From Nannocystis sp. SCPEA4 (GTDB lineage: Bacteria > Myxococcota_A > Polyangia > Nannocystales > Nannocystaceae): a stretch of 64,000 nucleotides of DNA. Position 1 is the first letter of the stretch, and each line of letters begins with the position of its first letter. The position numbers and the translations under genes were made by a program. A model generated the notes under the pieces. That model saw only the letters and a program-made list of their open reading frames with translations. It ran no database searches and was not told the origin of the DNA. This document shows, piece by piece, positions 21,038 to 64,000 of the stretch. The stretch is from positions 169,329-233,328 of the forward strand of contig NZ_JAPNJX010000021.1 in the NCBI RefSeq assembly GCF_026626685.1. Direction: 5' to 3'.

Positions 21038-21546
21038 CGAGTCTCCTTCCCTCCACGGAGGACCGCTCCCCGGACCTTCGGCGTCCTCGCCCACTGCGTT
21101 GAATACCCGTGGCGAGCCGTGGAGCGCTGACGGGCGCGTCACGGTGCTCGCCGACGCACGTGAGCGTGCAATCGCACTCTGCACTGGCCAGTTGGGCGCC
21201 CAGTGGGCGCCCGCCCACCGCTCGATGACGCCAGCACCACGGCTCGTTCATTTCCCCCGATCAATCCGCCATTTCCGATGATGTCTTTTCTCTCTTCGAA
21301 GACGAGCCGAATGTGAACGCGGTTTCCCTCGATGACGGCAAGCTCCAGACCACTGCAGGGCGTCAGCGACGGCGGCACCGCCATCGCACTCGAGGGTGAG
21401 GGAGGCGAGGTTGCCGAAGTCGATCACGAAGGGCCGGTGGATCGAGGGTCAACCCTCGGGCACGGGCATGGTGCATCCCGTGATCGGCACGATGCTCGGT
21501 ATGACCTGCGCGCGGATGGACGCCAGGGGAATCGATCAGGAATAGC

Positions 21547-47247: not shown

Positions 47248-47940
47248 TCATGCCTTGCCGCCCCTGGCGAGGCGATCGATGAGGAGCTTCGCGGCCGCCG
47301 CCGAGGAGGCCGGGTTCTGGCCGGTGATCAACTGGCCGTCGCTGACCGTATGAACGCCCCAGTTCTTGACCTTGGAGAAGATCGCCCCGAGCCTCATCAG
47401 CTCATCCTCGACGAGGAAGGGCACCACCTTCGTCAGGCCGACGTCCTCCTCCTCACCATTGGTGAAGCCGGTGACGTTCTTACCCTCGACAAGCGGCTTG
47501 CCGTCCGGGGTCTTGACATTGTGCAGGACACCCGGCGCGTGGCAGACGAGCGCGATCGGCTTGCCGGCTGCGAGGAACGCTTCGATCAGCTCGATCGAGT
47601 TCCGATCCTCGGCGAGGTCCCACATCGGGCCGTGGCCACCAGGGTAGAATACGGTGTCGAAGCCTTCCTGCTTGACGCTGTCGAGGGGGACCGTCCTTGC
47701 GAGTCGGGCCTTGGCGGCCTCATCGGCTTCGAACCGACGCGTGAGATCGGTCTGGAAGTTCGGCTCGTTGCTCTTCGGATCGAGCGGCGGCTGGCCACCC
47801 TTCGGCGAAGCCAAGACGATCTCGGCGCCCGCGTCCTTGAACACGTAGTAAGGCGCGGCCAGTTCCTCCAGCCAGAAGCCGGTCTTGCGGCCGGTGTTTC
47901 CGAGTTTGTCGTGGGAAGTGAGGACCATCAGGATCTTCAT
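47248..47940 (-). CDS. DJ-1/PfpI family (class-I glutamine amidotransferase-like) protein
   Basis: MKILMVLTSHDKLGNTGRKTGFWLEELAAPYYVF... with the nucleophile elbow IALVCHAPGVL. Confidence 0.8.
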   Translation of the reverse strand: MKILMVLTSHDKLGNTGRKTGFWLEELAAPYYVFKDAGAEIVLASPKGGQPPLDPKSNEPNFQTDLTRRFEADEAAKARLARTVPLDSVKQEGFDTVFYPGGHGPMWDLAEDRNSIELIEAFLAAGKPIALVCHAPGVLHNVKTPDGKPLVEGKNVTGFTNGEEEDVGLTKVVPFLVEDELMRLGAIFSKVKNWGVHTVSDGQLITGQNPASSAAAAKLLIDRLARGGKA

Positions 47941-48202: not shown

Positions 48203-48347
48203 CCACCCCGCGCGCGCCTCGGCGACGCGACCGACCAGCCGCAGCGCGTGGGCTCGCCAGACCTGCTCACGGCGCCCGATCCCCTGTCTCTCGGGCCAGC
48301 CGCGGGCGCTCGGGCGCGCTTGACCGTGATTGCTGTGGATCGATCGT
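48203..48347 (+). repeat. 145-bp direct repeat, copy 1
   Basis: Identical to 48998-49142 by direct reading. It contains TTGACC-N17-ATCGTA, a promoter-like spacing. A related 18-mer (cgttcggtggaccgcgtc) follows it. Confidence 0.8.
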
Positions 48348-48747
48348 AACCGTTCGGTGGACCGCGTCGTGACGTGAACCCTCCGAGGAGGTCCGTGGGA
48401 CCCGGCCCGTTGCCCTGGTTACTCTCGGCCCCGGTTGTCGTTGCCGTCCGTGAGCGCGATATTTGAGGCGCTGCAGCGTGCCGCGCACGCCGGCGTCGAG
48501 GATGCTGTCAACACCCTCTCGCTGGTCCGCGACGACCTCGTCCTGCACTCGGTGACGCCGGCGCACGGGACCAGGCTGAGCTCGTGCTGCCCGAAGCGGC
48601 GCGCTCCGGCATTCCGCGAGAGTGTGAGGGGATACCCAGACGGATCAGGGGGGGTTCAGTCGCTCTGTCTGTGCTGATTTGAGTCGTGAAGAAGATCACC
48701 CGCTGCGGATGCCTTCGCGCGCGCTGCAACGTGCTACTCACCGAGCC

Positions 48748-48963
48748 ATGTCCGCCGATGTCTCGTACTTGCTGCTTGGGTTCACCACGTTGATGCTGCT
48801 GGGCTTTGGCTTGCAGATCGCCATCATGCGCAAGCGTCGCGGCGAGTACATCGTCTACAAGCCGCTGCTGCTGCTGGCGCTGGTCGTGCTCTGGGGCCTC
48901 AGCCTGGTCTCCGTCGTGACCGGCAAGAGCATCTCCGAGCTCACCGGCGGCGTGATCGGGTAG
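48748..48963 (+). CDS. Small membrane protein (71 aa, 2 TM), between the two 145-bp repeats
   Basis: MSADVSYLLLGFTTLMLLGFGLQIAIMRKRRGEYIVYKPLLLLALVVLWGLSLVSVVTGKSI. The track's TTG start at 48679 is rejected in favour of ATG 48748. Confidence 0.3.
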   Translation: MSADVSYLLLGFTTLMLLGFGLQIAIMRKRRGEYIVYKPLLLLALVVLWGLSLVSVVTGKSISELTGGVIG

Positions 48964-48997: not shown

Positions 48998-49142
48998 CCA
49001 CCCCGCGCGCGCCTCGGCGACGCGACCGACCAGCCGCAGCGCGTGGGCTCGCCAGACCTGCTCACGGCGCCCGATCCCCTGTCTCTCGGGCCAGCCGCGG
49101 GCGCTCGGGCGCGCTTGACCGTGATTGCTGTGGATCGATCGT
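48998..49142 (+). repeat. 145-bp direct repeat, copy 2
   Basis: Identical to copy 1. It is preceded by cgttcggtctaccgcgtc, which is related to the 18-mer following copy 1. Confidence 0.8.
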
Positions 49143-49612
49143 CCCCGCCGGCGCCGCGCGACTGCGACGACGTGTCACCGGCCTCGCGGCTCGTCCTCGA
49201 TACCGACCCCGAGCTCGTCGATCGCGCCCGGGCGCGCGGGAGCCCGGCGCTCCGCGGTGACGCGACCATCCCCGCGTCCTCGCCGAGACCCCCCGAGCCT
49301 CGCGTGGCCCTCCGGTGCGGCCGTCGTCGACGGAGAGCCGCGGCGAATTCTCCGGCGCGCCGGACGTGATCGCCCTGCACACCTGCGCGGCGCCGATGCC
49401 GTGTCGCTGCCGCTCGCGTCGCTCGTCGCGCAGCGCGGGCGCGTGCGAGCGCGGCTGTCGAGCAATGCCGGGAGCGCGCGTAACATTGATGAATGGCACC
49501 GCCGAACACCGGACCGCGGGGTTTCACGCGGTCGCAAGATTGGCGCCTCCTCGAAAGCGTCGTCGTGTGCACGCAAATCGCGGCCCGTTCGCCGCAACTC
49601 GCAAAAATTTAT

Positions 49613-49697: not shown

Positions 49698-49805
49698 ATG
49701 ACCATGAACAAGAATGACACCAAGAAGTCGCAGAAGAACCTCTCCTTCAAGTCGGGCGTCCGCGCCGGCGCCGCGGGTGCCCCCGCCCCGGCCCGCATCG
49801 ACTGA
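49698..49805 (+). CDS. 35-aa small ORF, candidate RiPP precursor: MTMNKNDTKKSQKNLSFKSGVRAGAAGAPAPARID
   Basis: A low-GC, Lys-rich N-terminal half and a Gly/Ala/Pro-rich C-terminal half ending in Asp. AAAGG lies 4 nt upstream. A promoter-like element sits upstream and a 36-nt hairpin 38 nt downstream. It is directly upstream of the JmjC gene and the HlyD/C39-ABC export cassette. Confidence 0.45.
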   Translation: MTMNKNDTKKSQKNLSFKSGVRAGAAGAPAPARID

Positions 49806-51842: not shown

Positions 51843-52985
51843 ATGCCCGGTCAACCATTCTCGCAGTCGTTATCCGCCCTCGCGGCCCAGCGCGCCCGCT
51901 CGGGGCGCCTCGGGCTGGTCGTCGGCGCCGCGCTGCTGGTCGCGTGGACGTCGTGGATGGTGCTGGCGCGGGTCAAGGTCCACGCGGTGACCACGAGCGC
52001 GCGGGTCGAGGCGGTCGCGTTTCGCGTCGAGGCCGAGGTCGCGGGTCGCGTGGTCGAGACCCGGCTGCGACTCGGCGCCGAGGTCGAGGCGGGCGAGCTG
52101 CTCGTCGAGCTCGACAGCCAGCCGCTGGCCCTCGCGCTGGCCGAGAAGCAGGCGCTGCGAGCCAGCCTCGCGGCCCAGGTGGCGGCGCTGGACGGCCAGC
52201 TCGCGGCCGTCGCGGCGCTCCTGGCCGACCAGCACCAGCTGGCGTCGCGGCGCAACCGCGAGGCCGAGGTGCAGGCGCGCGCCGCCCGGATCTCGGCCCG
52301 CTACGCCGAGACCGAGGCCGACCGCTCGACCCGGCTGTACGACGCGAAGGTCGAGTCCGAGGCCGAGCTGTCGCGCACGCGGGCCAACGGACTGATCCAC
52401 CGCACGGCCGCTCGCGCTGCCGCGCTGTCGGTGGCGCGGATCGACGCCGAGGGCGCGACGGCGGCCACGGAGATCGAGCTGGACCTCGCGCAGCTCGAGC
52501 GCCAGCGCGCCGAGCTGCACGGCCAGATCGCGGTGACGACCGCGAGCATCGAGTCGATCGCCCACCAGATCGAGCAGCGGCGCGTGCGAGCGCCGGCCGC
52601 CGGGCGCCTGGGCGAGGTCGCGCTGCTGCAGCCCGGCTCGGTGCTGGCCGCCGGCGACGACATCGCCACGGTCGTGCCGGGCGGCGAGCTGCGGATCGCG
52701 GCCCAGTTCGCCCCCGCGACCGCGGTCGGCCGGATCCGCGCGGGTCAGCCGGCCCGCCTGCGCCTCGACGGGTTCCCGTGGACGCAATACCGATCGATCG
52801 CCGCCACCGTGGTGCGGGTCGCCGACGAGGCCCGCGAGGGCCACGTGCGCGTCGAGCTGAGCGTCGAGGCGGCGGCCCTGCCCGGCGTGCGGCTGCAGCA
52901 CGGCCTGCCCGGCTCGGTCGAGGTCGAGGTCGAGACCCTCTCGCCGGCGGAGATCCTGCTGCGCGCCGCGGGGGCGCTGTTCTGA
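51843..52985 (+). CDS. HlyD-family membrane fusion/secretion protein (bacteriocin-export type)
   Basis: An N-terminal TM segment, long coiled coils (LALALAEKQALRASLAAQVAALDGQLAAV..) and a C-terminal beta-barrel segment. It is followed by a C39-ABC gene 7 nt downstream. Confidence 0.8.
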   Translation: MPGQPFSQSLSALAAQRARSGRLGLVVGAALLVAWTSWMVLARVKVHAVTTSARVEAVAFRVEAEVAGRVVETRLRLGAEVEAGELLVELDSQPLALALAEKQALRASLAAQVAALDGQLAAVAALLADQHQLASRRNREAEVQARAARISARYAETEADRSTRLYDAKVESEAELSRTRANGLIHRTAARAAALSVARIDAEGATAATEIELDLAQLERQRAELHGQIAVTTASIESIAHQIEQRRVRAPAAGRLGEVALLQPGSVLAAGDDIATVVPGGELRIAAQFAPATAVGRIRAGQPARLRLDGFPWTQYRSIAATVVRVADEAREGHVRVELSVEAAALPGVRLQHGLPGSVEVEVETLSPAEILLRAAGALF

Positions 52986-52992
52986 GGTCGCC

Positions 52993-55707
52993 ATGCCCAC
53001 CCGCTCCGCCCCGCGCCGCCGCAGCCTGTTCGCGCCCGAGGTCATCCAGACCTCGGCGATGGACTGCGGGCCGGCGGCGCTCAAGTGCGTCCTCGAAGGC
53101 CACGGGATCCACGTCAGCTACGGCCGCCTGCGCGAGGCCTGCCAGACCGGGATCGACGGCACGTCGATCGACACGCTCGAGGAGATCGCCGGCGAGCTCG
53201 GGATCGACGCGCAGCAACGCATCGTGCCGCTCGACCACGTGTTCGAGCCCGCCGCCGGCGCCCTGCCGGCGTTGCTGGTGGTCCGCCAGCCCGGTGGCAG
53301 CAATCACTTCCTGGTCGTGTGGTCGTGCCACGGCGACCTCGTGCAGCTCATGGACCCCGGGACCGGCCGGCGCTGGACGCAGCGGCGGCGGCTGCTGGAC
53401 AGCGCGTACCTCCACTCGCAGCGCACGCCCGCGGCGGCCTGGCGCGAGTGGGCGAGCTCGCCGGAGTTCGTCGACGCGTTGCGGGCGCGCTGCGTGAAGA
53501 TCGGCTGCGGCGAGCTCGGGGCCACCCTCGTCGCCGAAGCCCTCGCCGAGCCGGGCTGGCGCACCCTGGCGGCGCTCGACGCCGCGGTGCGCATGGTCCA
53601 CGGCATGGTCCGCGCCCGGGCGATCGCCCGCGGTCGCCCCGCCGCGGGCATCCTCGTCGCGGTGTTCGCCCGCGCGCGGGTCGAGGATCTCGCGCACCCC
53701 ACGGCCCACCAGACGATCCCGCGGCTGTTCTGGTCGGTCCGACCGGCGCCGGCCGACGAGGACGGCGAGGAGGCGCTGATGCTGCGTGGCGCGGTGCTGG
53801 TCAGCTTCCGCGGCCTGCGTGGCGCCCCGGGCGGCGACGGCTTGCCCGCGGGGGCCGTCGTGCGCTCGCCCGAGCTCGCCGAGGCGCTGCGCGAGCCGCC
53901 CGCCCGCCCGGGCCGCGCGCTGCTCGGGCTGCTCCGGCTCGACGGCCTCGGCGCGCCGGCCCTGCTGCTCGTGGGCCTCGCGCTGGCGTCCGTGTGCGTG
54001 CTGCTCGAGGCCGTGGCGCTGCGCAGCGCCCTCGACGTCGGCGCGTGGTTGGGGCTGCCGGAGCAGCGCGCTGCGGCGTGGGGGCTGCTCGTCGCGCTGC
54101 TGCTGATCGTCCTGGCCGTCGAGGTCCCGCTGGCCGCGGCGGTGCTGCGAATGGGCCGCGCGCTCGAGGCCCGGCTGCGGATCGCCTTCTTGCGCAAGAT
54201 CCCCCGGCTCGAGGATCGCTACCTGCAGAGCCGCCCCACCTCGGACATGGCCGAGCGCAGCCACGGCGTCCACCGCCTGCGCCTGATCCCCGGGGTCGCC
54301 GCCCAGCTGCTGCGCGGCGGGCTGGAGCTCGCGCTGGTCACCGCCGGCCTGGTGTGGCTCGACCCCGACTGCGTGCCGCTGGCGCTGCCGATCGCCGCGG
54401 CGACGGTGCTGCTGCCGCTCGCGTTCCAGCCGCTGCTGGGCGAGCGCGACATGCGGGTGCGCAGCCACGCCGGGGCGCTGAGCCGCTTCTACCTCGACGC
54501 GCTGCTCGGCCTCACCGCGATCCGCACCCACGGCGCCGAGCGGACGGTGCGGCGCGAGCACGAGGGCCTGTTGGTCGAGTGGGCGCACACGTCGCGCGCG
54601 CTGCTGGCGGTGGTCGTGGCGGTCGAGGCGATGCAGACGCTGACGGGCGTCGGCCTGGTCGCGTGGCTGTTCTTCGATCACGTCCAGCGCGTCAGCGGCG
54701 GGGCCAGCACGCTGCTGTTCCTCTACTGGGCGCTGTCGCTGCCGGTGCTCGGCCAGGAGATCGCGGCCGCGCTGCGGCAGGTCCCCGCGCACAGGAACGT
54801 CACGCTGCGCCTGCTCGAGCCGCTCGGCGCGCGCGAGGTGCCGAGCACCGCGAGCGCCGGCGAAGTCCGCCCGCGGCCCGCGGCGGTGGGTCTGCGCTTC
54901 GCGGGCGTCGGGGTGGTGGCCGGCGGACACGCCCTGCTCGCGGACGTCGACCTGCAGCTGCGGCCCGGCGAGCACGTCGCCGTCATCGGGCCCTCGGGGG
55001 CCGGCAAGAGCACGCTCCTCGGCCTGCTGCTCGGCTGGCACCACCCGGCGCAGGGGCAGGTCCTGGTCGACGACGAGCCGCTGCGCGGCGAGGTGCTCGA
55101 GCGCCTGCGGACCTGGACGGCGTGGGTCGACCCGGGCGTCCGCCTGTGGAACCGCTCCTTGCTCGACAACCTCCGCTACGGCGCCCGCGCCGACATGGAG
55201 GCGACCGCCCTCGCGCGCGCCTTCGCCGACGCCGACCTCCGCGATCTGCTCGCCGAGCTGCCCGAGGGCCTGCAGACGGCGCTCGGCGAGGGCGGCGCGC
55301 TGTTGTCGGGCGGCGAGGGCCAGCGGGTCCGCCTCGGTCGGGCGCTGGCCCGCGAGCAGCCCGCGCTGGTGCTGCTCGACGAGCCGTTCCGCGGCCTCGA
55401 CCGCCCGCGCCGGCAGCGGCTCCTCTCCCGGGTGCGCGCGCGCTGGCGCAGCTCGACCCTGCTGTGCGTCACCCACGACGTCGGCGAGGCCGTCGGCTTC
55501 GATCGCGTGCTCGTGGTCGAGGGCGGTCGCGTGGTCGAGGACGGCCCGCCCGACCTGCTCGCGGCGCGGCCCGACTCCCGCTATTCGGCGCTGGTGGCCG
55601 CCGAGGCCGAGCTGCGCGAGGAGCTGTGGGCGAACCCCGCCTGGCGCCATTTGCGATTGATAGGAGGGGCCGTGCGCGGGCCGCAGGAGGGGCCCTCCGA
55701 TGAATGA
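52993..55707 (+). CDS. Peptidase-C39-domain ABC transporter (bacteriocin/RiPP leader-cleaving exporter, permease + ATPase)
   Basis: The C39 catalytic Cys is in QTSAMDCGPAALKCV and the His in SNHFLVVWS. A 6-TM domain follows, then Walker A GPSGAGKST, the signature LSGGEGQRVRL and Walker B LVLLDEPF. Confidence 0.85.
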   Translation: MPTRSAPRRRSLFAPEVIQTSAMDCGPAALKCVLEGHGIHVSYGRLREACQTGIDGTSIDTLEEIAGELGIDAQQRIVPLDHVFEPAAGALPALLVVRQPGGSNHFLVVWSCHGDLVQLMDPGTGRRWTQRRRLLDSAYLHSQRTPAAAWREWASSPEFVDALRARCVKIGCGELGATLVAEALAEPGWRTLAALDAAVRMVHGMVRARAIARGRPAAGILVAVFARARVEDLAHPTAHQTIPRLFWSVRPAPADEDGEEALMLRGAVLVSFRGLRGAPGGDGLPAGAVVRSPELAEALREPPARPGRALLGLLRLDGLGAPALLLVGLALASVCVLLEAVALRSALDVGAWLGLPEQRAAAWGLLVALLLIVLAVEVPLAAAVLRMGRALEARLRIAFLRKIPRLEDRYLQSRPTSDMAERSHGVHRLRLIPGVAAQLLRGGLELALVTAGLVWLDPDCVPLALPIAAATVLLPLAFQPLLGERDMRVRSHAGALSRFYLDALLGLTAIRTHGAERTVRREHEGLLVEWAHTSRALLAVVVAVEAMQTLTGVGLVAWLFFDHVQRVSGGASTLLFLYWALSLPVLGQEIAAALRQVPAHRNVTLRLLEPLGAREVPSTASAGEVRPRPAAVGLRFAGVGVVAGGHALLADVDLQLRPGEHVAVIGPSGAGKSTLLGLLLGWHHPAQGQVLVDDEPLRGEVLERLRTWTAWVDPGVRLWNRSLLDNLRYGARADMEATALARAFADADLRDLLAELPEGLQTALGEGGALLSGGEGQRVRLGRALAREQPALVLLDEPFRGLDRPRRQRLLSRVRARWRSSTLLCVTHDVGEAVGFDRVLVVEGGRVVEDGPPDLLAARPDSRYSALVAAEAELREELWANPAWRHLRLIGGAVRGPQEGPSDE

Positions 55708-57817
55708 CACGACCGCCTCGTCGCGCTGGCCCGTGCGACGGATCGCCGAGGCCATCGCCTGCCTCGCCCAGGTCGGCGGCCTGGCCCCGCGGCAGGTCGA
55801 GCTCGGCGAGGCCCCGGCCGGGCTCGCCGACGCCGACGCGCTGAACTTCGCCCGGTGGGTCGAGGGCGCGGCCGACTGGCTCGGCGTCGAGGCCGAGCCG
55901 GTCGTCACGACCTATCCGGAGATCGACGGCTTCCTCGCCGCCGCCGGCCCGGCGCTGCTGCAGCTGCCGGGCGAGCCGCGCAGCTTCCTCCTGCTGGTGC
56001 GCGCGACCAGGCAGGGCCTGGTCCTCCTCGGCCCCGATCACGAGCAGCGGACGGTCCCGCGGGCGCACGTGCGGGCGCTGCTGTGCGCGGAGGTCGAGGC
56101 GCCGATGCTCCCGCGCCTCGACAGCATGCTCGACGAGGCCGGCGTCACTCGCCGCGGCCGCGCCCGCGCCGAGCTCCTCGCCCAGTGGCTGCGCGCCGCC
56201 ACCATCGAGGGCTTCTGGCTGCTGCGCCTGCCGCCCGGCGCCGACCTGCGAGCCCAGGCCCGCCGCTTCCGCCTGCCGCGGCGCGCCGCCGGCGTCCTCG
56301 CCGGCTACGCCGCGGTCGTCGCCCTCGGCGTGCTCTCGTGGATCGCCGTCGGCCGCGGCGCGCTCACCGGCACCGTCGATCACGGCTGGCTCATCGCCTG
56401 GGTGGTGCTGCTGGCCACGGCCGCGGCGCTGCGCGCCCTCGTCACCGCCGCGTCCGGCCGGCTGGCGATCGACGTCGGCGCGCTCCTCAAGCAGCGGCTC
56501 CTCGCCGGCGCGCTGGCCCTCGACAGCCAGCAGGTCCGCCTCCGCGGCGCGGGACAGTTCCTCGGCTGGGTGCTCGAGTCGGACGCGATCGAGTCGCTCG
56601 CGCTGAGCGGCGGGCTCGCCGGTGTGTTCGCCCTGATCGAGCTGGTCGCCGCGTTCGCGGTCCTCGCGGCCAGCGGCCACGCCTGGCCGCTCGTCCCGGC
56701 GCTGGTGGTCTGCCTCGCGGCGGTCGCGTGGCTCGGCCGCGCCTACCTCGGCGGCCGGCGCCGCTGGACCGGCTTGCGCCTCGACATGACGCACGACCTC
56801 GTCGAGCAGATCGTCGGCCATCGCACGCGGATCGCCCAGCAGGCGCCGGAGGCCCGCTCCGATCGCGAGGACCAGGCGCTCCACGGCTACCTCGATGCCG
56901 GCGCGCGGCTGGACCGGGCCATGATCGTCCTCACCGGCCTGCTCCCCGGCGGCTGGCTCCTCCTCGGCCTGCTCGTCCTCGGTCCGGCCTTCGTCGCCGA
57001 CACCAGCCCGGCCGCCGCGCTGGTCGTCGCCGTCGGCGGCGTGCTGCTGGCCCATCGCGCGCTGCGGTCGCTCGTCGGCGGCCTCACGCAGCTGCTCGGC
57101 GCCCGCGTCGCGTCGGAGTCGATCGCGCCGATGTTCCACGCGACCGCCGGCCAGGAGCGCGTGTCCCCGGTGCTGCGCGGCGAGCTCGACCCCGACGGCG
57201 AGCCCGCGCCGCTCCTCGACGTCGATCGGCTCTCGCACCATTACCCGGGTCGTCGCGAACCGGCGCTGGACCACTGCAACCTGCAGATCCACCGCGGCGA
57301 ACGCGTGCTGCTCGAGGGCCGCTCGGGCGGCGGCAAGTCGACGCTGCTGTCGCTGCTCGCCGGCCTGCGCGAACCGCAGCACGGGCTCGTCCTGCTCGAC
57401 GCGCTCGATCGCCGGACCCTCGGCCTCGCCGGCTGGCGCCAGCGCGTCGTCGCGGTCCCGCAGTTCCACGACAATCACGTGATGACGGGCACCCTGGCGT
57501 TCAACCTGCTGATGGGACGACGCTGGCCGCCGACCGCGGACGACCTCGCCGAGGCGCAGGAGGTGTGCGAGGCGCTGGCGCTCGGCGAGCTGCTGGGGCG
57601 CATGCCCGCCGGCCTGCTGCAGGTCGTCGGCGAGACCGGGTGGCAGCTGTCCCACGGCGAGCAGAGCCGCCTCTTCATCGCCCGCGCGCTGCTCCAGGGC
57701 GCCGACCTGACGCTCCTGGACGAGAGCTTCGCCGCGCTCGATCCCGAGACCCTGCGGATCGCCCTCGCATGCGTCCTCGAGCGCGCCCCCACCCTCCTCG
57801 TCGTCGCCCACCCCTGA
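55700..57817 (+). CDS. ABC transporter permease/ATPase, second half-transporter of a heterodimeric peptide exporter
   Basis: A TM domain, then Walker A GRSGGGKST, signature LSHGEQSRLFIA and Walker B LTLLDESFA. ATG 55700 overlaps the upstream stop (ATGAATGA). HlyD + C39-ABC + second ABC is the layout of NHLP/Nif11-type microcin export cassettes. Confidence 0.85.
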   Translation: MNDTTASSRWPVRRIAEAIACLAQVGGLAPRQVELGEAPAGLADADALNFARWVEGAADWLGVEAEPVVTTYPEIDGFLAAAGPALLQLPGEPRSFLLLVRATRQGLVLLGPDHEQRTVPRAHVRALLCAEVEAPMLPRLDSMLDEAGVTRRGRARAELLAQWLRAATIEGFWLLRLPPGADLRAQARRFRLPRRAAGVLAGYAAVVALGVLSWIAVGRGALTGTVDHGWLIAWVVLLATAAALRALVTAASGRLAIDVGALLKQRLLAGALALDSQQVRLRGAGQFLGWVLESDAIESLALSGGLAGVFALIELVAAFAVLAASGHAWPLVPALVVCLAAVAWLGRAYLGGRRRWTGLRLDMTHDLVEQIVGHRTRIAQQAPEARSDREDQALHGYLDAGARLDRAMIVLTGLLPGGWLLLGLLVLGPAFVADTSPAAALVVAVGGVLLAHRALRSLVGGLTQLLGARVASESIAPMFHATAGQERVSPVLRGELDPDGEPAPLLDVDRLSHHYPGRREPALDHCNLQIHRGERVLLEGRSGGGKSTLLSLLAGLREPQHGLVLLDALDRRTLGLAGWRQRVVAVPQFHDNHVMTGTLAFNLLMGRRWPPTADDLAEAQEVCEALALGELLGRMPAGLLQVVGETGWQLSHGEQSRLFIARALLQGADLTLLDESFAALDPETLRIALACVLERAPTLLVVAHP

Positions 57818-57882
57818 ATCGTGTGGACGAGGCGTCGATCAGCGGCGTGCAGAGGAAGGTCGCGCCGGCGAGCAAGGATCTG

Positions 57883-58737
57883 CTATTGGATGCACCCGGA
57901 CTTGCGGCCATCCCCCTCGTTGTCGGTCTCGAAGCGTGCGCTCTTCCAAGTGTTCCGGCAGGCGGGCAGGTTGAAGTCCGCCATGTCGTACTTTTCGTTG
58001 TCCAGTGCAAAGTTGGCCAGAAGAACGTTATCGGTGGCACCAGCGGCCAGGCGGATGCCAATGGCGCCGTTCTCTTCGGCGGCGTTGGCCTGGAGGAGGT
58101 TATCATCCCCGTCCACCTCGATCCCGTCATTCCCATTGCCGCGGGCGAAGACGGCGTGAATCACGTTGTCGTAGCTGTCCTCGTCGACGAAGATTCCGTC
58201 GGCGCCGTTGAGGTCGTACCCTCCCCCGGTCCGGACGAGGACACCACTGCTGTCGAACAGAGCGAGCCCGTTGAGGCCGTTCCCGGACGCGGTGACGTTT
58301 CGGAGGGTGACGTCGACGGAGCCGAGCACGTCGATGCCATCCAGGCCGCTGTCTTCGACGGTGGCGTTCATGACGAGGACGTCGCTCGCACCCTCGACAC
58401 GAATGCCGGTGTCGAAGCCCTGAACGAGCACGTTGTTGATGACGACATCCGTCCGCGGCCCTTTTACCGAGATGCCGGTGCCCGTCGTGCCGGAGATCCG
58501 ATGGTGGCCCCCGTTGAGCCGGACGTTGCTCGCCTTGATGATGATGCCGTGCCCCTCACAGCTCAGGTCGTCGCTGATCCGGTACATCCCTGCCGAGTGG
58601 ATCGTGTACGAGCAGCTCTCGATCTTCGTCACCTTTGCTATGGCTGAGGCCGGGCTCAGCAGGATGCTCGCAAGCCCGGCGAGAATTGTCAGGCGTAGTG
58701 TGGTACGGTGGATGGTATTTCGCGCGCTGGTCCTCAT
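57883..58737 (-). CDS. Secreted right-handed parallel beta-helix (NosD/pectate-lyase-fold) repeat protein; signal peptide MRTSARNTIHRTTLRLTILAGLASILLSPASAIA
   Basis: Repetitive G-x-D-G-I/N-N-V beta-helix rungs (GLDGIDVLGSVDVTLRNVTASGNGLNGLAL...). GC content is lower than its surroundings. The track ORF extends to 58806. Confidence 0.55.
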   Translation of the reverse strand: MRTSARNTIHRTTLRLTILAGLASILLSPASAIAKVTKIESCSYTIHSAGMYRISDDLSCEGHGIIIKASNVRLNGGHHRISGTTGTGISVKGPRTDVVINNVLVQGFDTGIRVEGASDVLVMNATVEDSGLDGIDVLGSVDVTLRNVTASGNGLNGLALFDSSGVLVRTGGGYDLNGADGIFVDEDSYDNVIHAVFARGNGNDGIEVDGDDNLLQANAAEENGAIGIRLAAGATDNVLLANFALDNEKYDMADFNLPACRNTWKSARFETDNEGDGRKSGCIQ

Positions 58738-59563
58738 TGCTTTTCCCTCACTGTTCGCGGAGCCCGTAGTGACAGTATCCCGAGCCCTCCGCTCGTGTGA
58801 TAGCAAAAAGTGGTAGATCCTCCGCGTACCGTCAATTGCCCTCGATCACGGCGTGCATGCGGGCCACGGCCTCGTCATCCGAACAGAGGTGGCCACTCTT
58901 CAGTTTTCCGATCTCGATCACATCTTGCGTCTCTCGGAGCGGCAGCTCGACGCATCCGTCAAGCATTGCGCCGCGAGTTCGACATGTGTGGAGGTGCGTG
59001 TGTAACCGTTCAGTCTGGTGCGTGGTACCCCGGGGTGCGACGGCCTCGATGCGGCAAACGACGTGAACGCGGAGGGCCGAGGGCAAGTCGCGCGACACCG
59101 GTCTCGGTGCCGCGAAGCTCGAGCCTCGGCCCCGACGGCCCAGAAATCGAGTTGCTCGAGCAGCACCCGTCCCCGGGTCGGCCGTGGCCCCGCCCGACGT
59201 GCTGGTCGGCCGTTCGCGACCGCGGGAGCACCGAAGCGCGCCGGCGCCTCGGTGCAGTCGACCCCGATTGGGGGCGAAGGCCCCGGCCGCCCGCGAGCGA
59301 CGGTGCCGCCTGCACGCCACGCTCGCGCCGTCGCGCCGGGGGCCGCGCCCGCTTCGCGCCCTCACCGCGCAATGATGCATCTCGCTCGAATCGCGGGCCG
59401 TCGCCGAATGCTCGCAATCGCCATGGCGAGCATTCGCTCGGAAACAATACACTGCGCAGCGCAATGCGTGGTCGACAGGCACCAGCGAATCATGGCCGTC
59501 TTCCGCCCGTGCGCGCGGTCGTGGGTCTTGAGGGGCCCCATACGCCGTGCTAGCTTCCCCGCG

Positions 59564-59585
59564 CTGTCGTGAATAGGTGCGACAG
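59564..59585 (+). promoter_or_regulatory. Inverted repeat CTGTCG-N10-CGACAG 38 nt upstream of the 103-aa gene (candidate operator)
   Basis: Read directly. It overlaps the 10-mer GACAGGTGAA, which also occurs (reverse complement) at 5784-5797 upstream of the GT2 gene. Confidence 0.25.
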
Positions 59586-59622
59586 GTGAACGCCCGCGCG
59601 TCGCAGGCGAATTGGAGGATCT

Positions 59623-59934
59623 ATGGCATACGAATCAAGCATGCAGGATGGGAATCAGCTGGCGGAGCTCGAGCAGCTCGACGTGATCGAATCGAACGAG
59701 CTGAAGGTCGGCAACGCCTTCCACGCGTTCCGCTTCGCCGTCGTGCAGCCGCTGAACGAGCTCGACGAGCGGACCTTCGCCGTCCTCAAGGAGGCGTCGG
59801 TGCTCCTGGCCAAGCAGCAGGGCATCGACGAGAAGACCGCGCAGCAGCGGATCCTCGACGAGGCGGGGGAGAGCAACCCGATCGAGCAGGTCTCCCGTCA
59901 CGTCATCGCCCACTCGAAGCTGTTCACCAAGTGA
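59623..59934 (+). CDS. Small Cys-free protein (103 aa), candidate precursor/substrate of the downstream rSAM-MNIO enzymes; contains HAFRFAV
   Basis: Near-perfect RBS (TTGGAGGatctATG) and good codon usage. A 17-nt palindromic hairpin sits 22 nt after the stop, then the rSAM gene. I found no similarity to NHLP/Nif11 leaders. Confidence 0.6.
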   Translation: MAYESSMQDGNQLAELEQLDVIESNELKVGNAFHAFRFAVVQPLNELDERTFAVLKEASVLLAKQQGIDEKTAQQRILDEAGESNPIEQVSRHVIAHSKLFTK

Positions 59935-59955
59935 ACGGCCGGACCGGCGGGCGCG

Positions 59956-59972
59956 CGCCGTGCATTGCACGG
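59956..59972 (+). terminator. Perfect 17-nt palindrome GCCGTGCATTGCACGGC between the small gene and the rSAM gene (attenuator-like)
   Basis: Read directly. Only the central base is unpaired. Confidence 0.35.
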
Positions 59973-60002
59973 CGTCGGGCCCGCCGGTCGCCCCCACCCG
60001 AC

Positions 60003-61958
60003 ATGCCACCCTCCATCGACATGCGCGCGAGCGTCGGCCCGCCCGACGTGCTCTTGCTGTTCCCCCCGGCCACCGAGGCGCGGCTGTTCCCGTACCTCAG
60101 CCTGCCGGCCCTGACCGCGTACCTGCGGCGCGAAGGCGTCGCGGTGCGACCGCGCGACCTCAACATCGAGCTGTGCCACGCCCTGCTCGCGCCCGCGGCG
60201 TTGCGCGCCTACCTCGGGCCGGAGCTCGCCGCCGAGGCGGACCCGCAGCCGCTCGCGCGGGCGTATCGCTCGGCGATGGCGCGCTACCTGCTGGCGATCT
60301 GCGACTCGCTGCGCGCCCGCGTGTTCGACAAGGCCGCGGCGGCGATCGACAGTCGGTCGGCGCTGCGACTCGCCGGCCAGGCCATCGATCTGCTGTTCGA
60401 GCGATCGGCGCTGAAGTTCTCGTCGACCTCGTTGTCCCGGCTCGCGGCCCGGTTCACCGCCGGCGACGAGCCGGACGCGGACGACCTCGCCGCGCGTGCC
60501 CTCGCGGCGCTGCTGGACGACGCGCTCGCGCCGTCGACCCCGGCGATCGTCGGCATCTCGGTCGCGTTCTACAGCCAGATCGGGCCGGCGCTGTGGTTGG
60601 CGCGGCGGATCCGCGCGCGCTGCCCCGACGCCGTCATCGTGCTCGGGGGCCCGCAGATCATGCTGCGTCACGACGCATTGGCCCGCGTCCCGGCGATCGC
60701 CGGGATCGTCGACGCGCTGGCGACCGGCGCCGGCGAGGCGACCCTCGCCGCGCTCGCGCGGGCGGCCGCGGGCGCTGCCGCGTGGAGCGACGTGCCCTCC
60801 GTGGTGTGGCTCGACCGCCGCGCGCCGTCGCGGGACGATCCGCCGCCGCCGATCGCCGCGTTGCCCCCGCCCGACTTCTCCGATCTGCCGTGGCAGCGCT
60901 ACGTCATGGACGCGGTCCAGCTCCCGCTCGTCACCGGCATCGGCTGCTTCTGGGGCCGCTGCGCCTTTTGTTCGTACGGCGCCCGCTCGCGCCGCGTCGG
61001 CTATCAGCAGAAGTCGCCGCGCCAGATCGCCGACGAATGCGAGCACCTGGTCCGCACGTACGGCGTCCGCCGCATCAACTTCGTCGACGAGATGACGAAC
61101 TTGCCGGTCGTGCGTCGGGCCATGCGCCTGCTCCGTCGCCGCGGCGTCGCCATCGAGTTCAGCGTCCGCTGCCGCTTCGAGCGCCTGCTCCGCGACCTCG
61201 AGGTCTGCCGTGAGCTGCGCGCCCTCGGCTGCGTCCAGATGGCGGTCGGCTACGAGACCAATTCGCAGCGCCTCCTCGATCGCCTGGACAAGGGCGTCGA
61301 CGCCGCCGACTACCAGCCGATCGTCGACAACCTGCACGCCGTCGGCATCGAGCTGCGGCTGTCGGTGATGGGCGGGATCCTCGACGAGACCGCCGAGGAG
61401 GTCGCCGCCTCCGAGGCGTTCCTCGCCGCCAACGCCGACAAGATCGCCATCGACGTCATGCAGATGCTCACCTGCGAGCCCGGCACCCCGCTCGCCGAGC
61501 GCCCCGAGGAATTCGGCGTCGTCATCCCCGACCGCGAGCGCTGGCAGGGCAACGAATTGCTCAGCTACGGCCTCGGTCGCGTCGGCCTGCGCTTCGAGGC
61601 GCGCGGCGCCCCGCCCTTCGAGGCGATGCAGCGGCGCTTCCTCGCCATCCATCACAACGTCCATCCTCACAAGAACGACGACGTCCCGCCCGAGCGTCGC
61701 GGACCGCCGGCGCCCGCGGAGCCGGTGTACGCGGTCCAGCTTCACCCGTGGGTCCGGGTCGTGCACGCCACCTGGCGTGACGGCGCGGCCGCGCCGTTCC
61801 TCGCCAACTTGCTGTGGCAGACGATCTATCGCTTGCCGCCCGCCATCCAGCACGACGGCGAGCTGCTGCGGGCCGACGGCGACGAGGCCGCCCGCGTGCT
61901 CACGCGACTGCTCGCGACCGGGGCGGGCACGCCGGTGCGGGCCCGGAGGTCCGCATGA
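60003..61958 (+). CDS. B12-binding-domain radical SAM protein (class-B-like); cluster GCFWGRCAFC
   Basis: The N-terminal Rossmann segment is B12-binding-like (AVIVLGGPQIML). The Cys cluster is C-x4-C-x2-C, a non-canonical spacing. rSAM core motifs are present (GYETNSQRLLDRL..). Start set to ATG 60003; the track begins at 59577. Confidence 0.65.
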   Translation: MPPSIDMRASVGPPDVLLLFPPATEARLFPYLSLPALTAYLRREGVAVRPRDLNIELCHALLAPAALRAYLGPELAAEADPQPLARAYRSAMARYLLAICDSLRARVFDKAAAAIDSRSALRLAGQAIDLLFERSALKFSSTSLSRLAARFTAGDEPDADDLAARALAALLDDALAPSTPAIVGISVAFYSQIGPALWLARRIRARCPDAVIVLGGPQIMLRHDALARVPAIAGIVDALATGAGEATLAALARAAAGAAAWSDVPSVVWLDRRAPSRDDPPPPIAALPPPDFSDLPWQRYVMDAVQLPLVTGIGCFWGRCAFCSYGARSRRVGYQQKSPRQIADECEHLVRTYGVRRINFVDEMTNLPVVRRAMRLLRRRGVAIEFSVRCRFERLLRDLEVCRELRALGCVQMAVGYETNSQRLLDRLDKGVDAADYQPIVDNLHAVGIELRLSVMGGILDETAEEVAASEAFLAANADKIAIDVMQMLTCEPGTPLAERPEEFGVVIPDRERWQGNELLSYGLGRVGLRFEARGAPPFEAMQRRFLAIHHNVHPHKNDDVPPERRGPPAPAEPVYAVQLHPWVRVVHATWRDGAAAPFLANLLWQTIYRLPPAIQHDGELLRADGDEAARVLTRLLATGAGTPVRARRSA

Positions 61959-62914
61959 CGCGACGACCGACGACGCCGCGGCTCGGTCTCGGGGTCGGGA
62001 TGGATCTGCCGTGGGGCGAGCGGATCGGCTTCACCCGTGATCCCGGGCGCGGCGACACCGTCACCCCGCGGGTCGCCAACTTCCTGGCGCGCTACCAGGA
62101 GCGCTTCCATTACCTCGTGTTCGCGTTCCAGCCGGGCAACCGCAACCGCCTGCGCGCCGGCGACTACTTCGCCGCCTACGACGCCCTGTTCGCCGCGGCG
62201 CCGCGGATCGGTCACCGCGCGCTGCACCACACCCTGCTCAACATGGCGACCCTCGAGCCGATCGAGTTCGACGCGGTGGCGGCGTTCACCAACGCGCTCG
62301 TCGAGCGCTACGGCTTCGCGTGGATCGTCGAGGACCTCGGGCTGTGGTCGATCGCCGGCAAATCGCTGCCGTACCCGCTGCCGCCGTTCTTGACCGACGA
62401 GGGGCTGGCCGCGTGCATCCGCAACGTCCGCGGCTGGCAGTCGCGCCTGGCCGCGCCGGTGTGCGTCGAGTTCCCGGGCTTCACCGAGGGCGCGACGATC
62501 ACGATCGGGGCGATGGACGCCTTCGAGTTCTTCCGCGTCGTCGCCGACGAGACGGGCTCGCCGGTCACGCTCGACGTCGGCCACCTCCTCAGCTACCAGT
62601 GGTCGCAGGGCCGCGTGGGCCCGCGCCGCTTCGAGGCGCTCGAGCGCCTGCCGCTGCTCGCCTGTCACGAGATTCACCTGTCCGGCTGCCAGATCTCCGG
62701 CGGCAAGTTCCGCGACCTTCACCACGGCGTCCTGCTCGACGAGCAGCTCGAGCTGCTCGCCTGGCTGCTGCCCCGCTGCCCTCACCTCCGCGCGATCACC
62801 TACGAAGATCCGCGCTACTTCGAGGACGGCGAGCTGGTGCCCAAGTCGGTCGCCAACTTCGAGCGGCTCGCGGCCATGGCCGCCGCCTGGCTCGGCGAGG
62901 AGGCGCATGCCTGA
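61955..62914 (+). CDS. DUF692-family protein (multinuclear non-heme iron oxidase, MNIO; MbnB/TglH-like)
   Basis: The N-terminal RLGLGVGMDLPWGE resembles DUF692 N-termini. Its ~320-aa size fits a TIM barrel. ATG 61955 overlaps the rSAM stop (ATGA), and its own stop overlaps the next gene by 8 nt. Confidence 0.55.
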   Translation: MTRRPTTPRLGLGVGMDLPWGERIGFTRDPGRGDTVTPRVANFLARYQERFHYLVFAFQPGNRNRLRAGDYFAAYDALFAAAPRIGHRALHHTLLNMATLEPIEFDAVAAFTNALVERYGFAWIVEDLGLWSIAGKSLPYPLPPFLTDEGLAACIRNVRGWQSRLAAPVCVEFPGFTEGATITIGAMDAFEFFRVVADETGSPVTLDVGHLLSYQWSQGRVGPRRFEALERLPLLACHEIHLSGCQISGGKFRDLHHGVLLDEQLELLAWLLPRCPHLRAITYEDPRYFEDGELVPKSVANFERLAAMAAAWLGEEAHA

Positions 62915-63707
62915 GACGTTACAGACCGCGCTCTACCGGCTGCTCCACGATCGCCGCGCGCGCGACCAGTTCCTCGCCGGCCGCCTCGAATCCCTCGGGC
63001 TCGAGCCGTCGGCGCAGGCCCACCTGCGCACCATCGATCCGGACGAGCTGGTCGCCATCAGCGGCGCGATCGGGCGCGACCTGTTGCGCGGCAACGTCGA
63101 GTACGACGGCGGCCTGCGCAGCACCTTCCCCGATCTGTTCGCGCAGCTGGAGCGCGCCGGTCACGGCGCGGCCGCGCTGGTCGAGCGCTTCGTCGCCTCG
63201 CCGCAGTACGCCGACAGCCGGCAGGTGCCGTACGGCCCGCGCGGGATCTCGGTCGAGGAGGCGTTCTTCGAATTCCTGCGCGGTGACGACGCGCTGCGGG
63301 TCGCCGGACCGCACGCCGTCGATCTGCTGACCCACGAGTTCCTGACCGGCCTCCTCTCGATCCTCGTGCTCAACCGGGACCCGAGCTTCGCCGTGCGCAC
63401 CGCGCTGATCCGCGACAACGGCGTCGCCCACTACGCGGTGCAGCGCTATCCGGCCGAGTTCGTCCGCACCTTGACGAAGGGCCCGATCGCCGCGGATCCG
63501 TCCGGCGCGGCGCTGTTCCTCTACGCCGCCACGCCCGCGCGCTTCGTCCGCGGCCCCGCCACGCCGGTCAGCGCGGCGCTGGTGGAGCACGGGCGGATGC
63601 GGCCCGACGCCCTGGTCGCCGCGCTGGCGGGACAGGGCGTGGTGGTCACCGTCGAAAGCCTCGCGGCGCTCGGCGAGGGCCTCGCGCGTCTGGGGGTGAT
63701 CGCGTGA
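62907..63707 (+). CDS. MNIO partner protein (DUF2063-like)
   Basis: 266 aa, translationally coupled immediately downstream of the DUF692 gene, as in MbnBC/TglHI/BufBC pairs. Assigned by position and size rather than by motif. Confidence 0.4.
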   Translation: MPETLQTALYRLLHDRRARDQFLAGRLESLGLEPSAQAHLRTIDPDELVAISGAIGRDLLRGNVEYDGGLRSTFPDLFAQLERAGHGAAALVERFVASPQYADSRQVPYGPRGISVEEAFFEFLRGDDALRVAGPHAVDLLTHEFLTGLLSILVLNRDPSFAVRTALIRDNGVAHYAVQRYPAEFVRTLTKGPIAADPSGAALFLYAATPARFVRGPATPVSAALVEHGRMRPDALVAALAGQGVVVTVESLAALGEGLARLGVIA

Positions 63708-64000
63708 CGCGGGGTCTGGTCCGCGCGTTCGAGGAGCACGGCGAGGTGCTCGCGCACTGGCATCGCCAGGGCTGGTCGCGCGAGTGCGTGGTCGTCCTCG
63801 ATCATCACCTCGACCTCAAGCGGATCGCCGCCGACCAGCTCGCGCGCGTCCGCGACGGCGCCCGCGGCGGCGGCCTCGACCGGCTCCACCGCGATCTCCC
63901 GTTCCGCGACGACGACCGGTTCGCCTACGGCCTCGACAGCTTCCTCTACGCCGCCGCCGACCTCGGGCTGATCGAGCGCGTGGTGTGGGTCCTGCCGGAG
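63704..64000 (+). CDS. Hypothetical protein (partial, continues beyond the window); GTG start overlapping the upstream stop; possible metal-dependent hydrolase fold (VVVLDHHLDL)
   Basis: The open frame VTRGLVRAFEEHGEVLAHWHRQGWSRECVVVLDHHLDLKR... runs to the window end. Confidence 0.35.
   Translation, partial: MTRGLVRAFEEHGEVLAHWHRQGWSRECVVVLDHHLDLKRIAADQLARVRDGARGGGLDRLHRDLPFRDDDRFAYGLDSFLYAAADLGLIERVVWVLPE

Follow-up and report, generated by a model that had tools for sequence, protein, structure and literature searches.

A probable biphenomycin-type RiPP operon with a long orphan follower peptide in the myxobacterial genus Nannocystis

Biphenomycins are potent against Gram-positive bacteria, and their natural titres are very low. 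Their biosynthetic pathway was solved independently in Streptomyces griseorubiginosus and Peribacillus simplex (Strunk et al., Angew Chem 2025, PMC12707348), while the motif FHAFRF was found to define an MNIO-associated family of precursors from which biphenomycin-like macrocycles are made (Padhi et al., JACS 2025, PMC12257519). More than 1,000 similar pathways have been reported for this family of peptides made by the ribosome and modified post-translationally (RiPPs). In the characterised systems, the MNIO BipE/PbsC ortho-hydroxylates both phenylalanines of an FRF core, its partner BipF/PbsD, a protein with a RiPP recognition element, binds the leader, and the radical SAM enzyme BipD/PbsB forms a C-C biaryl cross-link between the two ortho-tyrosines (PMC12257519, PMC12707348). 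The arginase BipC, which carries EEHxE, DxHxD and DIDLD as its motifs for Mn binding, converts the core Arg into Orn (PMC12707348). Here, we report on a 64,000-nt stretch of high-GC DNA from Nannocystis, phylum Myxococcota (hereafter, the window), the end of which very probably represents, judging by its gene content, the 5' half of a RiPP operon of the biphenomycin type that comprises eight genes (cf. Table 1). The gene order of this operon is precursor, putatively B12-binding radical SAM enzyme, MNIO, MNIO partner, arginase, JmjC/HExxH fusion protein, TldD-like protease and GNAT acetyltransferase. The family was already known and its chemistry was published in 2025; what is new here is the long orphan follower at the C-terminus of the precursor, the GNAT gene that co-occurs with it, and the myxobacterial host. 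Neither Nannocystis nor Myxococcota nor an acetyltransferase is mentioned in the two papers (PMC12257519, PMC12707348) or in the supplements searched, and no other work on the FHAFRF motif was found in the literature searched.

Since the window ends within the arginase gene, the remainder of the operon was read from the contigs of N. radixulma (JAQNDN010000024.1, L001/L004; 98% identical to the window) and N. pusilla (JAIRAU010000002.1, L002; 93-96% identical). An exact-match look-up with the MNIO of the window had given no record. Related loci were collected by a scan of one genome per GTDB species, which returned 80 loci (designated by L numbers); precursors were sought in them by six-frame reading, and orthology was assessed by tblastn with the Nannocystis proteins as queries against all loci. 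These included the bip locus of S. griseorubiginosus (L042), a locus of Peribacillus sp. (L012, from a strain other than BE23), a cluster from a metagenome-assembled genome (MAG) of an uncultured Myxococcales (L007, CAYTGC010000041.1) and a metagenomic lineage represented by the contigs L086 and L003 from sample SRR1027651. Gene identities, orthology, motifs, synteny and cluster boundaries were established directly. Three Nannocystis genomes contain the operon intact and in the same gene order, its enzymes showing ratios of nonsynonymous to synonymous substitution rates (dN/dS) of 0.15-0.45. Synteny breaks on both flanks, upstream of 59308 and, between N. radixulma and N. pusilla, downstream of the GNAT gene. 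The last three genes, which lie outside the window, encode a 709-aa JmjC protein, a 374-aa PmbA/TldD-type protease and a 189-aa GNAT, and no exporter gene was present in the operon on either the N. radixulma or the N. pusilla contig.

Apart from the GNAT, every enzyme of the Nannocystis operon has a one-to-one orthologue among the Bip enzymes of S. griseorubiginosus. The bipA-I clusters of S. griseorubiginosus and S. filipinensis (PMC12707348) have in common with it an FRF core behind an ...AFHA motif, and the counterparts of BipEF, of BipC with its Mn motifs, of BipD, of the JmjC Orn hydroxylase BipG and the aKG-HExxH beta-hydroxylase BipH, and of the self-sufficient TldD-like protease BipI are all present in Nannocystis. 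The differences concern the precursor, as Sg_BipA has 41 aa and a 2-residue follower (FRF-RS), whereas the Nannocystis protein has 103 aa and a follower of 65 aa; the hydroxylases, as BipG and BipH are products of separate genes that correspond to one 709-aa fusion in Nannocystis; and the gene order, since in bip the arginase and MFS genes stand before the radical SAM gene. Furthermore, bip has an MFS gene and no GNAT gene, while the reverse is true for Nannocystis, and the hosts belong to Actinomycetota and Myxococcota, respectively. The pbs cluster of P. simplex BE23 (PbsA1-4, PbsB-E, PbsP and PbsQ; PMC12257519) shares the order precursor, radical SAM, MNIO, partner, arginase, as well as the FHAFRF motif and a ELEVIEAKELEVG-type leader. 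Instead of the single 103-aa precursor it encodes three to four, each about 44 aa long and ending in a follower of 8 residues; it also has a small cupin, PbsQ, whose gene overlaps pbsP, where Nannocystis has a JmjC-HExxH fusion as hydroxylase, and an MFS transporter, but neither a GNAT nor an HExxH hydroxylase. Compared with the Peribacillus sp. locus, sequence identities amount to 55% for the MNIO, 40% for the radical SAM enzyme, 37% for the partner, 32% for the arginase and 39% for the TldD-like protease. Among the complete collinear clusters found in genomes, the uncharacterised one of the Myxococcales MAG is the closest, with identities of 49% (radical SAM), 65% (MNIO), 46% (partner), 47% (arginase), 41% over the full length (JmjC-HExxH) and 47% (TldD); it differs in its 50-aa precursor with an FHAFKF core and a 15-aa follower, and no GNAT homologue was detected in it. 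Taken together, the Peribacillus, Thermoactinomyces and Myxococcales MAG clusters show identities of 32-65% and the same gene order as Nannocystis. Aminopyruvatide biosynthesis (ApyD, a radical SAM enzyme that depends on B12, and ApyHI, an MNIO with its partner; PMC11117315) is likewise a RiPP pathway that combines these three proteins, and the Apy models are the best-scoring named NCBIfam equivalogs for the Nannocystis radical SAM enzyme and MNIO, though far below the cut-offs (76 vs. 750 and 47.5 vs. 400). However, its YLY substrate, C-terminal Asp and P450-made cross-link have no equivalent in Nannocystis.

The precursor gene was read from the ATG at 59623, with a ribosome-binding site, GGAGGA (59614-59619), ending 3 nt ahead of it, while the NCBI annotation starts the gene at the ATG at 59641 and thus gives a protein of 97 aa. 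A sequence-only reading, made by a model without database searches, had described a Cys-free 103-aa protein with a near-consensus ribosome-binding site and the string HAFRFAV, and had likened the action of an MNIO and a radical SAM enzyme on its FRF tripeptide to biphenomycin-type RiPPs. Both the description and the likeness were borne out, the latter by the FHAFRF motif, the family leader and the orthology of all enzymes. Leader and core read AELEQLDVIESNELKVGNA-FHAFRF; the string NAFHAFRF occupies residues 31-38 and is preceded by AELEQLDVIESNELKVG, and the leader is of the acidic ELExLxVIExxEL type with the conserved sequence ELEQLDVIESNELKVGNA. Between the Nannocystis precursor and its metagenomic homologue, which are only 51% identical overall, AELEQLDVIESNELKVGNAFHAFRF is invariant. 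A word-indexed search of 5.8 billion clusters yielded three relatives of the precursor, two from Nannocystis and one from a metagenome; the 103-aa protein occurs only inside such clusters. It is not the widespread stand-alone protein that, according to the sequence-only reading, would have refuted that reading. Precursor motifs (FHAFRF, FHAFKF, FHTFMF or YHxYxY) adjoin the MNIO gene in 57 of the 80 loci, with leaders of the same type wherever these are readable, and the same leader and core were found in more than 50 orthologous loci. FHAFKF-core precursors, in which Lys replaces the Arg substrate of the arginase, were encoded at L007:3970-4122 and L066:6473-6622; the former cluster keeps its arginase homologue (47% identity) despite the Lys core, which raises the question of the enzyme's task there. 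Two loci of Thermoactinomycetaceae (L005:7717-7917 and L008:7681-7881) encode 66-aa precursors with two tandem leader-FHAFRF units each.

Table 1. Features of the Nannocystis window, with positions counted from its first nucleotide
Feature	Position	Strand	Basis or remark
DJ-1/PfpI gene	47248-47940	-	in 13.9-kb segment
JmjC_2 gene, 413 aa	49947-51188	+	in 13.9-kb segment
GNAT gene, 145 aa	51193-51630	-	in 13.9-kb segment
HlyD gene	51843-52985	+	
C39-ABC gene	52993-55707	+	
Second ABC gene	55700-57817	+	
Conserved 5' untranslated/promoter-bearing region	59308-59622	+	synteny with N. pusilla resumes at 59308
Precursor gene (bipA/pbsA-like), 103 aa, Cys-free, contains HAFRFAV	59623-59934	+	
Leader, residues 1-35			
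FHAFRF motif	59719-59736		
FRF core, residues 36-38	59728-59736		
Follower, 65 aa, residues 39-103	59737-59931	+	
Intercistronic GC-rich stem-loop between precursor and enzyme genes	~59937-59992	+	folding, conservation
Putatively B12-binding radical SAM enzyme, 651 aa, BipD/PbsB orthologue	60003-61958	+	Pfam, tblastn, motif
MNIO (DUF692), 319 aa, BipE/PbsC orthologue	61955-62914	+	PF05114, tblastn
MNIO partner, 266 aa, BipF/PbsD orthologue	62907-63707	+	position, tblastn
UPF0489-type peptide arginase, 412 aa, BipC/PbsE orthologue	63704-64000	+	first 99 codons in window

The enzymes encoded in the window were identified as follows. The radical SAM protein matched the Pfam family Radical_SAM above threshold (2.3e-12); compared along the entire sequence, it shows identities of 40-49% with the enzymes of the Peribacillus, Thermoactinomyces and Myxococcales MAG clusters, and of 34% (E 4e-59) with that of the S. 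griseorubiginosus locus. Its cluster motif, GCFWGRCAFC, has the Cx4Cx2C spacing that had been recognised from the sequence; it had also been called unusual, which did not hold, as each of the 56 orthologues aligned has the pattern GC[YF]WG[RK]CxFC[SA]YG. The assignment of the next gene to DUF692, whose failure the sequence-only reading had likewise named as evidence against itself, was upheld by PF05114 (3.8e-13, 49.7 bits vs. a cut-off of 25). This MNIO is 55% identical to the one in the locus of S. griseorubiginosus (E 1e-102), the biphenomycin producer species (PMC12707348), and equally to those of Peribacillus and of Bacillus clarus (a DUF692 protein), the latter species being named as host of an orthologous cluster (PMC12257519); many Streptomyces and Bacillota proteins are 55-60% identical to it, and the profile of its clade matches the DUF692 structures 3bww and 8hci. 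The partner had been taken for a DUF2063-like protein, but no PF09836 match was obtained, nor any other Pfam match at E <= 0.1 or NCBIfam match, and PbsC-type partners are classed in the literature as 'PME-type 2', distinct from DUF2063 (PMC12452194). It is homologous to the gene located directly downstream of the MNIO gene in nearly all related loci, with identities of 37-46% to the Peribacillus, Thermoactinomyces and Myxococcales clusters. The partial open reading frame (ORF) at the end of the window proved to be the N-terminus of the arginase. Truncated as it is, it gave a weak match to PF12640 (UPF0489, 0.013), while the full-length N. radixulma protein aligns with the bip/pbs arginases over about 400 aa at 30-47% identity (30%, E 1.5e-16, for S. 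griseorubiginosus); the Mn-binding motifs EEHGE and DHHLD, encoded in the window, and DVDLD, encoded beyond it, are kept in the orthologues. The four genes behind the precursor gene are translationally coupled and overlap by ATGA at 61955-61958 (radical SAM/MNIO), by 8 nt at 62907-62914 (MNIO/partner) and by GTGA at 63704-63707 (partner/arginase), exactly as had been noted from the sequence. Single-sequence searches of solved structures with the MNIO, the partner, the arginase and the radical SAM enzyme gave nothing significant. In about 25 further loci from Polyangium, other Myxococcota, Bdellovibrionota and assorted MAGs (L016, L021, L026, L033, L035, L039-L041, L043, L045, L046, L048-L051, L054, L055, L057, L059, L060, L062, L063, L067, L072 and L079), the MNIO is 45-59% identical to that of Nannocystis and the partner gene nearly always adjoins it; no radical SAM, arginase or FHAFRF-like ORF was found within 10 kb of the MNIO gene there, and this MNIO clade evidently has further substrates elsewhere.

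The three genes beyond the window complete the set. The 709-aa protein matched JmjC_2 (1.3e-15), its N-terminal part is 38% identical to BipG (E 1e-30), and its residues 513-708 are 38% identical to BipH (E 5e-26). Since the C-terminal domain matches TIGR04267, the model of aKG-HExxH-type peptide beta-hydroxylases (83.6 bits vs. a cut-off of 40), and contains the sequence HEAAH, the protein is, by sequence comparison, a BipG/BipH fusion. Such a JmjC-HExxH fusion is also common to the loci L005-L008 and L061. The TldD-like protease matched PmbA_TldD_3rd (3e-37), contains the sequence HECIGH (HExxxH) and is 35% identical to BipI (E 7e-34).

As for the expression of the operon, the nucleotides 59560-59622 are nearly invariant in the three Nannocystis genomes; a scan of the plus strand at the operon start revealed neither a sigma-70-type promoter nor an intrinsic terminator. 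The hairpin noticed behind the precursor gene in the sequence-only reading is real and contains a perfect palindrome, CGCCGTGCA-T-TGCACGGCG. An 86-nt segment with this stem-loop (59925-60010) folds with -54 kcal/mol (z = -4.6), and none of 200 shuffled sequences folded as well. The stem-loop is kept in the three Nannocystis genomes, in which variation is too low to show covariation, and it lacks a T-run and was not called as an intrinsic terminator. A riboswitch or other known RNA was also considered for the hairpin and the region upstream, but there was no credible Rfam match. We infer that the stem-loop shifts the stoichiometry in favour of the precursor over the enzymes, be it by terminating part of the transcripts or by stabilising the mRNA.

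On the basis of the enzyme functions reported in PMC12257519 and PMC12707348, and by orthology to the Bip and Pbs enzymes, the following pathway can be proposed. The partner would bind the conserved leader, and the MNIO would turn both phenylalanines of the FRF core, Phe36 and Phe38, into ortho-tyrosines by ortho-hydroxylation. The UPF0489 arginase would convert Arg37 into ornithine, and the radical SAM enzyme would close the macrocycle by forming a biaryl C-C bond between the ortho-Tyr rings. The JmjC domain would then gamma-hydroxylate the ornithine, the fused aKG-HExxH domain would beta-hydroxylate the C-terminal ortho-Tyr, and the TldD-like protease would trim the leader and probably also the 65-aa follower. 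Since a BipH-type function is present, a product of the biphenomycin A type, i.e., a beta-hydroxylated one, is predicted, and a biphenomycin A-like tripeptide macrocycle is most likely the expected product.

Several points weigh against this assignment. It relies on sequence data, and no product is known from Nannocystis. The closest homologues of the GNAT elsewhere (56-64% identical) are stand-alone proteins of Pyxidicoccus and Myxococcus, encoded in unrelated contexts outside such clusters. The 65-aa follower is unlike that of any characterised precursor and may alter processing, because TldD-type proteases act on unfolded peptides and helices are predicted in the follower by AlphaFold2 (AF2). 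The similarity of the partner to Streptomyces BipF is weak (29%, E 2e-4). Finally, the match of the radical SAM enzyme to the B12-binding family PF02310 (5e-4, 20.3 bits) stays below the cut-off of 32.1, its B12 dependence being deduced from orthology to BipD/PbsB, and its top NCBIfam matches are models of C- and P-methyltransferases, all far below their cut-offs. If the enzyme were a C-methyltransferase, like most class B radical SAM enzymes in RiPP clusters, the product would be methylated and not cross-linked. The models concerned are TIGR03975, 'RiPP maturation radical SAM C-methyltransferase' (4e-31), and that of the PhpK P-methyltransferase family, but the scores of 108 and 81 bits compare with cut-offs of 282 and 600. 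By its full length (34-49% identity) and its position in the operon, the protein is an orthologue of enzymes shown to cross-link and not to methylate (PMC12257519, PMC12707348), and the methylating clusters of the family carry a second radical SAM enzyme and a DUF5825 protein (PMC12257519), neither of which is among the genes called here. We therefore consider methylation highly improbable and keep to a biaryl cross-link as the predicted modification.

The GNAT homologue adjoins the cluster only in the Nannocystis loci and in the metagenomic lineage, and it stands in the place of the MFS exporter. The two contigs of that lineage come from the same sample, overlap by 23 nt and derive from an organism of about 56% GC; when joined, they encode the radical SAM enzyme, MNIO, partner, arginase, JmjC/HExxH protein, TldD-like protease, a 107-aa precursor and the GNAT. 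As the precursor gene follows the protease gene there and immediately precedes the GNAT gene, it has been relocated within the cluster, while the pairing of follower and GNAT was kept. A long follower and a GNAT thus occur together in two lineages, Nannocystis and this metagenome-only one, in both of them without an exporter. The nearest relatives by MNIO sequence, L084 (77% identical) and L087 (65%), have an MFS gene instead, their precursors being cut by contig ends. The idea that the GNAT is a tailoring enzyme specific to the family was rejected in view of the unrelated contexts of the Pyxidicoccus and Myxococcus homologues; because these closest homologues stand alone, it is by adjacency only that the GNAT is assigned to the biosynthetic gene cluster. 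If it does belong there, N-acetylation of the freed amine may be its task, which would serve to tailor the product or, the cluster having no MFS exporter, to protect the host from it.

The follower comprises 65 aa in Nannocystis and 69 aa in the metagenomic homologue, whereas in the 56 other precursor-bearing loci it comprises 1-15 aa or, in the two tandem precursors of Thermoactinomycetaceae, 28 aa up to the second core. Nannocystis therefore does not fit the short precursor that is typical of the family, though not defining for it (about 40-55 aa with a follower of 1-15 aa), which agrees with the earlier suspicion, raised by the length of the protein and the internal position of the motif, that the locus is a divergent variant. 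An exhaustive phmmer search with the follower alone against 1.84 billion representative proteins found no homologues outside its own cluster, and the Pfam search returned nothing credible, only a chance-level match to ANTAR (0.079). A degenerate second leader-core repeat, analogous to the tandem precursors, was tested as its origin and found to be unsupported, since Smith-Waterman alignment against shuffled sequences gave p = 0.84 for Nannocystis; in the metagenomic homologue p was 0.03, and the position was a different one. Could the follower be a folded functional module? With the same enzymology, it might be retained, in which case the product, some 68 residues long, would be a helical mini-protein with the biaryl macrocycle, possibly N-acetylated, at its N-terminus, or it might be released as a functional polypeptide serving immunity, regulation or docking of the GNAT. 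Such a role is consistent with the conservation of 25 of the 65 columns between Nannocystis and the SRR1027651 organism, whose enzymes are 52-57% identical, and with the three helices predicted by AF2 with pLDDT of up to 88 (79-88 at residues 50-80); yet the mean pLDDT of the precursor model is 60.8, and a Foldseek search of the model against the PDB returned nothing at E <= 0.001. Moreover, no part of the operon is under weaker constraint between Nannocystis species than the follower (dN/dS 0.68, from 13 substitutions), and there are no homologues that would hint at an independent function. The precedents point in both directions: the product of PbsP in E. coli kept the follower behind its N-terminal macrocycle (PMC12257519), whereas BipI strips both leader and follower in vitro and P. 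simplex makes the free tripeptide (PMC12707348). The GNAT, for its part, accompanies the long follower in both lineages and resembles RimI/RimJ-type N-terminal acetyltransferases and the RiPP N-acetyltransferase HaaN, although all these matches are below cut-off. On balance, we consider a functional follower, either attached or released, unlikely, and favour its removal from a biphenomycin A-like tripeptide. If true, however, a follower kept or released as a functional module would be a new architecture for this RiPP class.

The upstream transporter genes for HlyD, a C39-peptidase ABC protein and a second ABC protein (cf. Table 1), which the sequence-only reading had thought could serve either of two RiPP-like loci, do exist but are not conserved with the operon. 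N. pusilla lacks the segment 45452-59307 of the window (13.9 kb) and keeps the operon together with about 315 bp upstream of it, so the transporter genes belong to an independent 13.9-kb insertion and are not integral to the cluster. Were they nevertheless its dedicated leader-cleaving exporter, this would suit a cluster devoid of an exporter of its own. The cassette is on the same strand, with its end 1.8 kb ahead of the precursor gene, and the end of the leader (...KVGNA) loosely resembles a double-glycine leader, with VGGA at this place in some Streptomyces relatives. Against this stand, apart from the intact operon of N. pusilla, the divergently oriented beta-helix gene and the variable 1.4-kb spot that separate the cassette from the operon, the use of BipEF/BipI for leader removal and of an MFS transporter for export in the characterised systems, and the presence, next to the cassette, of JmjC_2 and GNAT genes of its own and of a small ORF as a candidate. 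A dedicated role of the cassette is hence quite improbable, although its opportunistic use for export is possible.

The 13.9-kb segment is probably the other RiPP-like locus that had been noted in this DNA. Just upstream of its JmjC_2 gene, a 35-codon ORF (MTMNKNDTKKSQKNLSFKSGVRAGAAGAPAPARID, approximately 49698-49805) could encode the peptide substrate of this JmjC_2 protein. The JmjC_2 and GNAT proteins of the segment were also examined as recent paralogues of those of the cluster, and this was rejected, as they share 29% and 33% identity over partial lengths. A 150-nt direct repeat (48203-48352 and 48998-49147, 99% identical) flanks a lower-GC, hydrophobic-looking 94-aa ORF (48679-48963), which may encode a membrane protein, and a small insertion or duplication may have left this arrangement behind. 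The gene at 57883-58806 on the minus strand encodes a 307-aa right-handed beta-helix/NosD-like protein (Beta_helix 4e-23) with a hydrophobic, signal peptide-like N-terminus and is located in a 1.4-kb spot (57822-59207) in which the N. radixulma sequence differs. Farther upstream, the region 21505-45408, with a nonribosomal peptide synthetase gene for 5770 aa (21505-38817) followed by DUF6875, ABC, MbtH, DUF697, Band_7 and SBP-like genes, corresponds by synteny to the sequence found in N. pusilla immediately next to the biphenomycin-type operon.

The locus leaves the known MNIO and radical SAM chemistry unchanged, and for the specialist it is useful in genome mining rather than surprising. It extends the biphenomycin pathway to the cultivable myxobacterial genus Nannocystis, and it provides two natural tests, namely, of how well a TldD-like protease and leader-dependent enzymes tolerate a long C-terminal extension of their substrate, and of whether N-acetylation can replace export as a means of self-protection.

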